From NCBI RefSeq assembly GCF_054482595.1, contig NZ_CM137008.1: DNA of 64,000 nt. One strand, written 5' to 3'. The translations under genes and the position numbers were made by a program. Of this stretch, positions 5,044 through 9,915 are shown in pieces. Each line of letters starts with the position of its first letter. Positions within the stretch are counted from its first letter, which is position 1. The notes under the pieces were generated by a model that had not been told where the DNA came from, ran no database searches, and saw only the letters and a program-made list of their open reading frames with translations.

Positions 5044-6366
5044 TTATTCGCTGATACGGCGATAGACAGTTGGTGTGCTTTCCGGTGCTTTATCGGCAAG
5101 TTTAATTGCCGCTTTCACCGCTTTCGCCGCTTCCTGCCAGCTGTTTTCGTCTTTCGCGTGGATAACCGCCAGCGGACGCTGACCGTCTACCTGGTCGCCC
5201 AGACGTGCCATATCAGTAAAGCCGACGCTGTAATCGATGGTGTCAGATGCCTGACGGCGTCCGCCGCCCATTGCAACCACTGCCATCCCCAGCGCGCGGG
5301 TATCCATTTCACTGACAAAACCTTCGGTATCAGCATAGACTGCTTTCGTCAGCATCGCTGTCGGCAGATACTTCGCGTAGTTCTCAACGAAGTCGGTCGG
5401 GCCTTTTTGTGCCGCTACCATACGACCAAAGACTTCTGCCGCTTTACCGTTGTCCAGCACCGCCTGCAATTTCGCGCGCGCTTCGGCGTCATCTTTCGCC
5501 AGTTTGCCGGAGATCAGCATCTCCACACACAGCGCCATCGTGACATCAAACAGACGCGGGTTACGATATTCACCCGTCAGGAACTGCACCGCTTCACGAA
5601 CTTCAACCGCGTTACCTGCACTGGAGGCCAGTACCTGATTCATGTCGGTGAGCAGCGCGGTGGTGCGCACGCCAGCGCCGTTAGCCACGCCAACAATCGC
5701 TTCGGCAAGGGCTTCAGAGAGTTCGTAGGTCGGCATAAACGCGCCGCTACCCACTTTCACGTCCATCACCAGCGCGTCCAGACCTTCCGCCAGTTTCTTC
5801 GCCAGGATCGAGGCAGTGATCAGCGGGATGGAGTCCACGGTTGCGGTAATATCGCGGGTCGCGTAGAAACGTTTATCTGCCGGAGCCAGTGAGCTGGTCT
5901 GGCCAATAATCGCCACACCGACGTCTTTAATAATTTCGCGGAAACGGTTGTCATCCGGGAAAATGTCGAAGCCAGGGATGGATTCCAGTTTGTCGAGCGT
6001 ACCGCCAGTATGACCGAGGCCACGACCGGAGATCATCGGAATATAGCCGCCGCAGGCTGCGACCATCGGCCCCAACATCAGCGAAGTGACATCGCCGACG
6101 CCACCGGTGGAGTGTTTATCAACAATCGGTCCATTCAGATGCAGGCTTTTCCAGTCGAGAACGGTTCCTGAATCTCGCATCGCCATGGTCAGCGAGACAC
6201 GCTCAGGCATTGTCATATCGTGGAAGAAAATGGTCATCGCGAGGGCGGCAATCTGCCCTTCGGAGATAGTGTTGTCGCGAATACCGTTGATAAAGAAACG
6301 AATTTCTTCATCGCTCAGCGCATGACCATCACGTTTTTTACGAATAATTTCTTGTGCGAGAAACAA
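5044..6366 (-). CDS. deoA: thymidine phosphorylase DeoA
   Basis: 440-aa [34 protein letters not shown]... Confidence 0.95.
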
Positions 6367-6399
6367 GGTAACCTCCCGAGGAAAAGAGTATGAGGCGGC

Positions 6400-6480
6400 T
6401 TTTGCCGGATGCGTCTACGCCTTATCCGGCCTACGGGTAGATACGTCTCGTAGGCCTGATAAGCGCAGCGCATCAGGCGT
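6400..6480. repeat. REP/BIME-type palindromic element between deoA and deoC
   Basis: GCCGGATGCG...CGCCTTATCCGGCCTACG and GTAGGCCTGATAAGCGCAGCGCATCAGGCG motifs. Confidence 0.75.
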
Positions 6481-6492
6481 AAAGCATCTTAC

Positions 6493-7272
6493 TTAGTAGC
6501 TGCTGGCGCTCTTACCGTCGCCGTGGCCCAGCGCTTTCAGCAGGCTTGCCAGCAGGCTGGAAGCGCCAAAGCGGTAGTGACGCGCATCAGCCCAGTCAGC
6601 ACCGAACAGTTCATCTGCGATGGCGAGATATTTCTGCGCATCTTCCGCAGTACGCACGCCGCCCGCCGGTTTGAAACCAACGGTTTTTTCTACGCCCATA
6701 TCACGGATCACTTCCATCATGATGCGCGCGCTTTCCGGCGTCGCGTTCACAGCCACTTTACCGGTAGAGGTTTTGATGAAGTCCGCACCCGCTTTGATGG
6801 AGATTTCAGACGCTTTACGGATCAGCGCTTCGTCTTTCAGTTCGCCGGTTTCGATGATCACTTTCAGCAGTACATTCGCTGCCGCGCAAGCCTCTTTACA
6901 GGCTTTCACCAGGTCAAAACCAACCTGCTCGTTACCCGCCATCAGCGCGCGGTACGGGAACACAACGTCAACTTCATCAGCACCGTAGGCGATTGCCGCA
7001 CGGGTTTCTGCCAGTGCGATGTCGATGTCGTCGTTACCGTGTGGGAAGTTGGTTACCGTAGCAATACGGATTTCCGGGGTGCCCTGCTCTTTCAGTGTTT
7101 TGCGAGCAATCGGGATAAAGCGAGGATAGATACAGATAGCGGCGGTATTGCCGACCGGAGTTTTGGCCTGATGACACAGAGCAATTACTTTCTCGTCGGT
7201 GTCGTCGTCATTCAGGGTGGTCAGGTCCATCAATTTCAGTGCACGCAGGCTGCTTGCTTTCAGATCAGTCAT
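6493..7272 (-). CDS. deoC: deoxyribose-phosphate aldolase DeoC
   Basis: [52 protein letters not shown]...; start taken at the internal Met (259 aa). Confidence 0.95.
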
Positions 7273-7316
7273 TTCATTCTCCTGGCTTGTCGCCAATAAA
7301 ATTCACCTTGCGAGTT

Positions 7317-7332
7317 TGTTAGTATTCTAACA
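7317..7332. promoter_or_regulatory. DeoR operator (near-perfect palindrome) at deoP2, about 45 bp upstream of deoC
   Basis: TGTTAGTATTCTAACA, one mismatch to the TGTTAGAA/TTCTAACA palindrome. Confidence 0.7.
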
Positions 7333-7529
7333 TCTACTCCGCAACACACTTCGATATACATCACAATTAAGGAAATCTACTTACAAGTTTGCATCACTAT
7401 AATGCGATCTGGTTCAAATAATTCACTTTCAAATGAATGCGTCAGTGGTGGCAAACGCATCAGGATCAAAGTGAACATCACGAAACTTCTTACAATGGCG
7501 CATCACCTTCGGCATAAAAGGAAAAGAAG

Positions 7530-9080
7530 ATGCCCACTTCTCATGAAAATGCACTGCAACAACGTTGCCAGCAAATTGTCACCAGCCCAGTGCTTAGCCC
7601 GGAGCAGAAGCGCCATTTTCTGGCACTGGAAGCAGAAAACAATCTGCCTTACCCACAGCTTCCTGCCGAAGCCCGCCGCGCGCTGGATGAAGGTGTAATC
7701 TGCGATATGTTTGAAGGTCATGCGCCGTACAAACCGCGCTATGTCTTACCCGATTACGCCCGTTTTCTGGCGAACGGTTCCGAATGGCTGGAGCTGGAAG
7801 GCGCGAAAGATCTTGATGACGCACTCTCTCTGCTGACCATTCTTTACCACCACGTACCGTCGGTCACATCGATGCCGGTCTACCTGGGGCAACTGGATGC
7901 GTTGTTGCAACCGTATGTTAGAATTCTAACACAAGACGAGATCGATGTTCGAATAAAACGTTTCTGGCGTTACCTCGACAGAACCCTGCCAGACGCCTTT
8001 ATGCACGCCAATATCGGCCCGTCTGATTCGCCCATTACCCGCGCGATCTTACGTGCAGACGCAGAGTTGAAGCAGGTTTCACCGAACCTGACCTTTATCT
8101 ACGATCCTGAAATCACCCCTGATGACCTGCTGCTGGAAGTGGCGAAGAACATCTGTGAATGTAGCAAACCGCACATCGCCAACGGTCCGGTGCATGATAA
8201 AATTTTCACAAAAGGGGGCTACGGGATTGTGAGCTGTTACAACTCACTGCCGCTGGCGGGTGGTGGCAGCACGCTGGTACGCCTTAACCTGAAAGCCATT
8301 GCCGAGCGCAGCGAATCGCTGGATGACTTCTTTACGCGCACTCTACCGCACTACTGCCAGCAGCAGATCGCCATCATCGATGCGCGGTGTGAATTCCTCT
8401 ATCAACAATCACACTTCTTTGAGAATAGCTTCCTGGTGAAAGAAGGGCTGATTAACCCTGAACGTTTTGTGCCAATGTTTGGCATGTATGGGCTGGCGGA
8501 AGCGGTTAACTTGCTGTGTGAGAAAGAAGGGATTGCCGCGCGCTACGGTAAAGAAGCCGCCGCAAATGAAGTGGGTTATCGCATCAGCGCGCAACTGGCG
8601 GAGTTTGTCGCCAATACCCCCGTGAAATATGGCTGGCAAAAACGCGCCATGTTACACGCACAGTCGGGGATCAGTTCCGATATCGGCACCACGCCGGGCG
8701 CGCGTTTGCCGTATGGCGATGAGCCAGATCCGATCACCCATCTGCAAACTGTCGCCCCGCATCATGCTTATTATTATTCCGGCATCAGCGACATTCTGAC
8801 GCTCGACGAAACCATCAAACGTAATCCGCAGGCGCTGGTACAGCTTTGCCTCGGTGCCTTTAAAGCCGGAATGCGTGAATTTACCGCCAATGTCAGCGGT
8901 AACGATCTGGTTCGCGTTACCGGTTATATGGTGCGTTTGTCGGATTTAGAAAAATATCGCGCCGAAGGTTCACGCACCAACACCACCTGGCTGGGCGAAG
9001 AAGCCGCACGCAACACTCGTATTCTGGAACGCCAGCCGCGCGTGATAAGCCATGAACAGCAGATGCGCTTTAGTCAGTAA
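7530..9080 (+). CDS. yjjI: glycine-radical-enzyme family protein YjjI
   Basis: 516-aa ORF divergent from deoC; recognised as YjjI. Confidence 0.85.
7917..7932. promoter_or_regulatory. DeoR operator (perfect 16-bp palindrome), deoP1-type site lying inside the yjjI reading frame
   Basis: TGTTAGAATTCTAACA; centre is 600 bp from the 7317-7332 site. Confidence 0.65.
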
Positions 9081-9915
9081 GATTATCCCCTTCTCCTGCG
9101 TTGACGGGCCAGGCAGTCGTCTGGCTCTGTTTTTGCAGGGCTGCAATCTGCGCTGCAAAAACTGTCACAATCCGTGGACGATGGGACGTTGCAATGACTG
9201 TGGGGAGTGCGTGCCACAGTGTCCGCATCAGGCGTTGCAGATTGTTGACGGCAAAGTGGTGTGGAACGCTGTGGTCTGCGAGCAATGTGATACCTGCCTG
9301 AAGAGGTGTCCGCAACATGCCACACCAATGGCGCAATCCATGAGCGTGGAGGAGGTGCTTAGCCATGTGCGCAAAGCGGTGCTGTTTATTGAAGGGATAA
9401 CGGTAAGCGGCGGCGAAGCCACGACCCAACTGCCGTTTGTAGTGGCGCTGTTTACTGCCATCAAAAACGATCCGCAACTGTGCCATCTCACCTGCCTCGT
9501 GGACAGTAACGGTATGTTGAGCGAAACCGGCTGGGAAAAATTGCTCCCGGTGTGCGACGGCGCAATGCTCGATCTCAAAGCGTGGGGGAGCGAATGTCAT
9601 CAACAATTAACCGGACGCGATAATCAGCAGATTAAGCGCAGCATCTGTTTGCTGGCAGAGCGCGGCAAGCTGGCGGAACTGCGTTTGCTGGTAATCCCTG
9701 GCCAGGTGGATTATTTGCAACACATCGAAGAACTGGCGGTGTTTATCAAGGGACTTGGCGATGTTCCGGTACGCCTGAACGCGTTTCATGCCCACGGCGT
9801 GTATGGCGAGGCGCAAAGCTGGGCGAGCGCCACGCCGGAAGACGTTGAGCCGTTGGCTGATGCGTTACGGGAGCGCGGGGTGAGCCGGTTAATATTTCCG
9901 GCGCTGTATTTGTGA
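9052..9915 (+). CDS. yjjW: glycyl-radical enzyme activating protein (radical SAM) YjjW
   Basis: 287-aa ORF with Cys-rich ferredoxin-like cluster motifs ([32 protein letters not shown]); overlaps yjjI 3' end by 29 nt. Confidence 0.85.

Follow-up and report, generated by a model that had tools for sequence, protein, structure and literature searches.

Three probable DeoR operators of the deoCABD operon, two of them inside the divergently oriented yjjI ORF

The stretch of DNA analysed here (the window) comprises 64,000 nucleotides of contig NZ_CM137008.1 (assembly GCF_054482595.1). It contains deoC and yjjI, which are divergent and separated by a gap of 257 bp, and yjjW comes after yjjI. The DNA is that of Escherichia coli. 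The genes of this locus and the sites discussed below are listed in Table 1. The strand of yjjI is opposite to that of deoCABD, and hence the ORF that hosts the sites is outside the regulated operon. Of 5426 complete E. coli genomes, 5423 contain the region between positions 7200 and 8300, which is annotated there as yjjI and deoC. Relative to K-12 MG1655, the window carries 3 SNPs over 1101 bases; one of them falls in CRP site 1, and O1, O2 and OE are all identical.

Table 1. Genes, probable operators and putative promoter elements at the deoC-yjjI locus (window positions).
Feature	Position	Strand	Details
deoC	6493..7272	-	deoxyribose-phosphate aldolase; first gene of deoCABD
deo operator O2	7317..7332	-	TGTTAGTATTCTAACA; deoC-sense TGTTAGAATACTAACA; holds the putative deoP2 -10, TAGAAT (7329..7324)
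deoP2 CRP site 1	7350..7365	-	deoC-sense TGTGATGTATATCGAA; centre at -40.5 from the putative P2 start
deoP2 CRP site 2 (presumed)	7403..7418	-	deoC-sense TTTGAACCAGATCGCA; centre at -93.5 from the putative P2 start; conserved block
predicted yjjI promoter	7463..7496	+	invariant GGATCAAA (7463-7470, likely FNR half-site); -10 TACAAT (7491-7496)
yjjI	7530..9080	+	516-aa YjjI-family glycyl radical enzyme; host ORF of O1, deoP1 and OE
deo operator O1	7916..7931	-	perfect palindrome TGTTAGAATTCTAACA, 0 mismatches
deoP1 extended -10 within O1	TG 7931..7930, TAGAAT 7928..7923	-	putative
deoP1 -35/upstream zone	7944..7967	-	putative; UP-like, A+T-rich; deoC-sense CCAGAAACGTTTTATTCGAACATC
deo operator OE	8195..8210	-	TGATAAAATTTTCACA, 4 mismatches; 279 bp past O1

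A preliminary description of this DNA had placed two DeoR operator palindromes at 7317-7332 and 7917-7932, 600 bp apart. Both palindromes are real. We take the DeoR operator consensus to be the 16-bp palindrome TGTTAGAA/TTCTAACA, to which the sites starting at 7916, 7317 and 8195 have 0, 1 and 4 mismatches, respectively. O1 and O2, the latter being one mismatch away from a perfect palindrome, were the sole matches with 3 mismatches or fewer in the 64 kb (mean of 0.22 in 100 shuffles), and a perfect 16-mer is by arithmetic expected ~1.5 × 10^-5 times per 64 kb. The position proposed for the first site was correct, while the second lies one base lower than proposed. The start-to-start distance (7916 - 7317) is exactly 599 bp and not 600 bp, in agreement with the spacing of about 599 bp to which it had been compared. 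A relaxed scan returned just two sites with 4 mismatches in the window, one of them being OE, which lies 878 bp from O2 and was absent from the preliminary description. A chance origin of the sites was excluded by the palindrome scan against shuffles together with the geometry of OE.

O2 starts 44 nt before the deoC start codon (ATG). Read in the deoC sense, every operator has the form TG-T-TAGAAT..., i.e., an extended -10 element, and we infer that P2 starts at about 7317 and P1 at about 7916, which corresponds to position 4,616,679 of K-12. Within yjjI, O1 (nt 387-402) begins 386 nt into the ORF and extends from the third position of codon 129 to codon 134 (TAT GTT AGA ATT CTA ACA); OE extends from the third position of codon 222 to codon 227 (CAT GAT AAA ATT TTC ACA). 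Judged by its distance to the -10, the zone covering yjjI codons 139-146 (GAT GTT CGA ATA AAA CGT TTC TGG, with the rare codons CGA and ATA) would be the -35/UP element of P1. A consensus promoter scan of positions 7200-8300 called neither P1 nor P2, as expected because their -35 elements are weak, and its one look-alike, on the + strand inside OE, corresponds to a chance frequency. The more distant CRP site of P2 is presumably the second one of the published arrangement. CRP site 1 is conserved as a block when 16 sequences are aligned (the window plus 15 loci from other genera), and the same 16-mer, TGTGATGTATATCGAA, was reported from CRP ChIP-seq in ETEC as the motif belonging to yjjI/deoC (PMC4287617). 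An intragenic CRP ChIP-seq motif at 7853-7868 was rejected as a selected site, since with a synonymous entropy of 0.6-0.9 it is unconstrained.

The deo operators of E. coli K-12 were reportedly characterized by Valentin-Hansen, Dandanell, Hammer and Amouyal between 1982 and 1989. In that work, O1 is reported to be at the -10 of P1, with -10 and operator overlapping, and OE to lie exactly 279 bp upstream. The order and spacing of O2, O1 and OE in the window agree with the published deo system, in which DeoR represses deoP1 and deoP2, two promoters 599 bp apart (PMC3334521), and in which single operators O1 and O2 lie ~600 bp apart at the tandem promoters, with OE ~300 bp further upstream (PMC8053113). 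That the two palindromes are O2 and O1, as first suggested, is borne out by a spacing equal to the published one (PMC3334521; PMC8053113). Looping was measured in vivo (PMC8053113), and the 878 bp between O2 and OE compare with a natural looping range of up to 900 bp (PMC4217526). DeoR binds its sites and loops the DNA, and deoxyribose-5-phosphate releases it (PMC8053113, PMC5326754, PMC4217526). The claim that the distal operator and deoP1 are located about 390 bp inside yjjI is also correct, and one deoCABD promoter has been placed 'in an upstream gene, yjjI' (PMC6389913, 2019). The gap between deoC and yjjI is just 257 bp; therefore P1, O1 and OE fall inside the yjjI coding sequence. A search for the operator strings in the loopometer supplement and the searchable literature gave no relevant match. 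Taken together, the three sites are very probably those at which DeoR controls deoCABD in E. coli, with P1, O1 and OE within a correctly annotated yjjI. Operators, promoters and looping of this kind are textbook knowledge and not a new kind of element.

The conservation of the sites was analysed in yjjI loci with and without deoC. One genome scan yielded 80 loci with yjjI, in genera that extend from Escherichia to Proteus, and 5 were added from exact-protein look-ups; 2 loci without upstream sequence are outside the comparison of adjacent with non-adjacent loci. In 76 loci, representing 76 species, deoC is the divergent neighbour of yjjI, and 215-473 bp separate the two genes. The O1 palindrome is at yjjI nt 387-402 in every one of these loci (0, 1 and 2 mismatches in 53, 19 and 4 loci, respectively). 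OE is also found in 76 of 76, always 279 bp from O1 and identical in sequence in 63, and the intergenic O2 is present at the homologous place in every one of them, with 1-5 mismatches. The intragenic O1 is better conserved than the intergenic O2. Some natural E. coli strains, for instance GCA_040748765.1, carry a deletion of 192 bp in yjjI by which OE is lost. The O2-O1 spacing of the adjacent loci differs among genera, between 567 and 675 bp, and 599 bp was accordingly rejected as a conserved looping distance. Seven yjjI loci, including four from Proteus and that of Moellerella, lack deoC in the 3 kb upstream. At the positions homologous to the operators these loci have 6-9 mismatches and choose their codons freely, and no other good DeoR site was found when these 7 loci were scanned. 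It is likely, from this comparison of sequences, that P1, O1 and OE arose in place once yjjIW adjoined deoC.

In the 76 species, synonymous variation within yjjI is lowest at O1, at OE and in the zone upstream of P1, rare codons included. The normalised synonymous entropy in 5-codon windows was 0.013 at OE, 0.041 at O1 and 0.14-0.21 at codons 139-146, versus a gene median of 0.70; OE is the window of lowest synonymous diversity in yjjI, and codons 139-146 are the third-lowest island. In adjacent loci the O1 codons GTT AGA ATT CTA ACA are essentially invariant, although AGA and CTA are rare, and the Leu and Pro codons that flank O1 vary freely. At the O1 codons Proteus has GTG/GTC/GTT, GGT/GGG/GGC, GAG/AAT/TCT/AAC, CTC/TTG/CTT and ACC/ACG. 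The OE codons are GAT AAA ATT TTC ACA in adjacent loci versus GAT GCx GTx TTT GGx in Proteus. The codons of the P1 upstream zone are invariant among adjacent loci, whereas Proteus differs in both codons and amino acids.

Changes were also counted by Fitch parsimony on a 75-sequence tree. Third positions changed 15.2 times on average in the gene and 0-3 times inside the operators (per codon, 0, 2, 1, 0, 0 and 0 in O1, and 0, 0, 3, 1, 0 and 0 in OE). Summed over 16-nt windows, the changes numbered 6 at OE, which ranks 2 of 1533, and 19 at O1, which ranks 20, the median being 104; 14 of the 19 changes in O1 were at operator position 6, which is position 2 of codon 131. The lowest 30-nt window was yjjI nt 421-450 (7950-7979 of the stretch analysed), at about -35 to -64 from the putative P1 start. 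It is encoded by ATC GAT ATT CGA ATA AAA CGT TTC, with the rare codons CGA and ATA, and Proteus has CTT TAC CCT AAG TTA AAA CGC TTC in its place. The only other comparably low window is at the 3′ end of yjjI, where it overlaps the start of yjjW. A low-synonymous island at 8415-8438, containing TTTGAGAAT, was considered as a fourth operator and rejected, as its 30-nt Fitch sum of 108 does not stand apart from the other low values of the gene (115, 115 and 123 come next). We found no publication on a codon-level footprint at these sites or on the way in which adjacent loci differ from non-adjacent ones. This footprint is an extra detail on a known system.

The encoded residues differ between lineages as well. 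Residue 131 is Gly in the outgroups (Proteus, Moellerella and a 57%-identical relative) and also in Hafnia and Edwardsiella, in which O1 reads TGTTGGAATTCTAACA or TGTTGGAATTTTAACA. In Enterobacteriaceae it is either Arg, whose codon AGA completes the palindrome, or Lys (AAA). At residue 132, Ile (ATT) contrasts with E, N, S, D or Q in the outgroups. OE encodes D-K-I-F-T, compared with D-A-V-F-G in Proteus, and the P1 upstream zone I-D-I-R-I, compared with L-Y-P-K-L. In the family alignment, O1 and OE are in indel-prone, hypervariable segments beside conserved motifs, with LLxP(F/Y)V preceding and YG(I/V)(A/V)SCYN following. The yjjI ORF can tolerate the two operators because these segments are hypervariable and prone to indels.

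The preliminary description had also entertained a mis-set yjjI start. In that case the true gene would begin downstream of 7931, and O1 and P1 would be non-coding, as might be thought from shorter YjjI entries of 402 and 391 aa in the databases. The 402-aa versions, however, begin at M115, still upstream of O1 (codon 129), which they retain; the 391-aa entry opens at L125, without a Met, and is read as a fragment; and OE, at codon 222, is intragenic whatever the start. Pfam PF11230 aligns over its full profile (1-485 of 485) with YjjI residues 22-504, and TIGR04040 (1-497 of 497) with residues 11-504. An exhaustive homologue search among 1.84 billion representatives returned full-length relatives. 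Seventeen diverse full-length homologues (33-56% identity in the alignment) have matches that start at query residues 7-52, mostly at or before 23, and their N-termini are co-linear; a start downstream of 7932, which had been named as a possible finding in yjjI homologues, was not what they showed. In the 75-sequence tree, the changes per site in codons 2-128 were 3.3, 1.9 and 15.2 at the first, second and third codon position, and in two later yjjI segments 2.8, 1.1 and 17.2, and 2.8, 2.0 and 16.2. The N-terminal segment of yjjI is under ordinary protein-coding selection. When N-terminal conservation is set against operator constraint, as had been proposed, codons 2-128 are coding-like and the synonymous sites of O1 near-invariant. 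The profile alignments, the co-linear homologues and the codon-position pattern all contradict a mis-set start, which is thereby refuted. The frozen codons could alternatively be an RNA or translational feature of the yjjI mRNA, such as a hairpin or a rare-codon pause, given that the 16-nt palindrome is able to form a small hairpin and that the constrained islands hold the rare codons AGA, CTA, CGA and ATA. But the constraint follows adjacency to deoC and not yjjI itself, being absent in the 7 non-adjacent loci. Furthermore, operator position 6 has ~14 changes and its palindromic partner, position 11, only 1, so that there is no covariation; both islands fit the DeoR motif at the published spacings; and the motif also occurs in non-coding DNA, at O2. 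An mRNA feature is thus very unlikely.

Upstream of yjjI, GGATCAAA is invariant in the 16-sequence alignment, and the hexamer at 7491-7496 is TACAAT or TACACT. These elements suggest a class II FNR promoter for yjjI, with a predicted start near 7504. FNR binds and activates yjjI, to which an FNR ChIP peak was assigned (PMC3688515), and yjjI was induced 4.3-fold anaerobically in Yersinia intermedia (PMC3792023). The putative deoP1 start and the predicted yjjI start are convergent and ~412 bp apart. If both are right: i) the yjjI promoter would be enclosed by the O1-O2 loop, ii) yjjI transcription would have to pass DeoR bound at O1 and OE, and iii) P1 transcripts would be antisense over ~386 nt of yjjI coding sequence and over its promoter. 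From this geometry, a regulatory overlap with yjjI expression is plausible.

We tentatively raise the possibility, which we consider somewhat doubtful, that yjjIW, coding for an orphan FNR-activated glycyl radical enzyme and its activase, is a hidden member of the DeoR regulon. Transcription of yjjI could then be blocked either by DeoR on O1 and OE or by the loop between O1 and O2, and after DeoR release antisense transcription from P1 could interfere with the 5′ end of yjjI and its promoter. Either effect, if true, would make an enzyme of unknown function responsive to the availability of deoxynucleosides. A link to DeoR fits the conserved gene neighbourhood of yjjIW, which comprises deoCABD and the genes of a NupC-family transporter and of a TatD-family nuclease. 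A stronger version would have O1 and OE mainly regulating yjjIW, through a DeoR roadblock or loop, with the control of deo being secondary. Both operators are downstream of the predicted yjjI promoter, itself inside the O1-O2 loop, and yjjIW is found among nucleoside-catabolism genes in many genera. However, yjjI and its surroundings are free of DeoR-like sites at the loci without deoC (those of Proteus, Moellerella and others), also beside a nucleoside transporter gene; O1 coincides with a promoter directed at deoC; and published genetics credit O1 and OE with the repression of deo. We consider this stronger version improbable.

The reading that we strongly favour is that the three sites are operators of deoCABD. 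O2 would act at P2 in the deoC-yjjI intergenic region, O1 at P1, 599 bp upstream, and OE 279 bp beyond; DeoR multimers would bind them, loop the DNA and repress both tandem promoters until deoxyribose-5-phosphate frees the repressor. The same bases would then have two functions, as yjjI codons and in the binding of DeoR and RNA polymerase. Selection for this binding would have frozen the synonymous positions of codons 129-134, 139-146 and 222-227, including the rare AGA, CTA, CGA and ATA. It would also have swapped some YjjI residues, in hypervariable segments that tolerate change.

Since the deo operators belong to the founding examples of repression through looped DNA, their presence here is expected. 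The added value is modest and evolutionary: a complete promoter and two operators would have evolved, and been maintained, in the coding sequence of a neighbour, overriding its codon preference and even its amino-acid identity. The locus provides a clean natural case of dual-use codons with experimentally validated sites, and points, as far as sequence can suggest it, to a possible DeoR link with the orphan enzyme YjjI.

When the sites are compared with O1, O2 and OE of K-12 deo, the system is the same: the sequences, the 599- and 279-bp spacings and the tandem CRP sites of P2 are alike, and the element itself shows no differences. In other operons, the lac auxiliary operator O2, inside lacZ, and the gal operator OI, inside galE, form a loop with the promoter-proximal operator. 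The likeness to deo is that a repressor operator lies in a translated ORF and cooperates by looping. The lac and gal operators, however, lie in a gene of the regulated operon itself, whereas in deo a complete promoter and two operators are in a divergent neighbour, in antisense orientation. With the dual-use codons described for transcription factor sites in coding sequences, the deo sites share the double constraint, the synonymous drop and the lineage-specific amino-acid changes; unlike most intragenic ChIP sites, they have decades of genetic and biochemical support. Finally, deoP1 and the predicted yjjI promoter would be face-to-face as in excludon-like convergent units, both starts at this locus being deduced ones.

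Two natural yjjI alleles lack the DeoR operator OE. In the first, a 452-aa E. coli allele (locus L087) found in 176 blocks of the collection, an in-frame deletion of 192 bp, bordered by the 7-bp direct repeat ATCGCCA, removes OE and YjjI residues 216-279, among them the family-invariant S235, C236 and N238; both O1 and O2 are retained. In the second, a 476-aa allele observed on 12 contigs, residues 202-241 are missing, and OE is gone too. The strains that carry either allele are natural OE-less strains, and YjjI function has probably been lost in them as well.

Positions of the features discussed (window positions; for L handles, which denote yjjI loci from other genomes, positions in that locus)
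Feature	Position	Locus or location
Predicted yjjI promoter, GGATCAAA + TACAAT	7463-7496	upstream of yjjI
Hairpin and T-run, GCAACGTTGTTGC AGTGCATTTT	7556-7568, - strand	deoP1 leader, just inside the 5' end of yjjI
CRP ChIP-seq motif, CGTACCGTCGGTCACA	7853-7868	about 50 bp from O1, on its downstream side in the deoC sense
192-bp deletion	8175-8366	yjjI
Synonymously invariant run	8415-8438	yjjI codons 296-303
Sigma-54 ChIP-seq motif, CTGGCTCTGTTTTTGCA	9121-9137	inside yjjW
NupC-family gene by yjjW	about 5400-6700	L033, L051, L053, L054, L058-L060, L063
NupC-family gene by yjjW	about 5400-6700	L065, L069, L074, L076, L082, L083
NupC-family gene	1647-2921	L085

A fourth synonymously invariant run in yjjI reads TTC TTT GAG AAT AGC TTC CTG GVG, the last codon being GTG in the window. 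It contains TTTGAGAAT, which is similar to the DeoR left half-site TGTTAGAAT. The synonymous constraint of this run is no clear outlier, and Proteus has other codons and other amino acids there.

A CRP ChIP-seq peak within the ETEC yjjI gene has been reported with the motif CGTACCGTCGGTCACA (PMC4287617), and across genera this motif shows no synonymous constraint. The peak could reflect weak binding; a speculative alternative is indirect cross-linking, through the DeoR loop, to the CRP sites of P2. Between 7200 and 8300 the window differs from K-12 MG1655 by three SNPs (7357, 7399 and 8060), the first of which falls within the spacer of CRP site 1 at deoP2: this site is TGTGATGTATATCGAA in both the window and ETEC, and K-12 has G for A at 7357.

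When the region upstream of yjjI was aligned for the window and 15 other genera (16 sequences), GGATCAAA and TACAAT were found to be conserved with near-constant spacing, and are likely to represent the yjjI promoter; the left half that would complete an FNR box was not conserved in this alignment. In the deoP1 leader, a short hairpin is followed by a T-run. Two such sites were found against 1.4 expected, a number within chance.

Downstream, a strong sigma-54 ChIP-seq site has been reported within yjjW, with CTGGCTCTGTTTTTGCA as its motif, and a second site in yjjV (PMC4591121). A gene for a NupC-family nucleoside transporter adjoins yjjW in many genera; in Moellerella, where deoC is absent, such a gene lies directly upstream of yjjI. 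The neighbourhood of yjjIW is one of nucleoside/DNA catabolism, a setting that may hint at the role of the orphan glycyl radical enzyme YjjI. In E. coli, only the TatD-family gene yjjV occupies the corresponding place next to yjjW.
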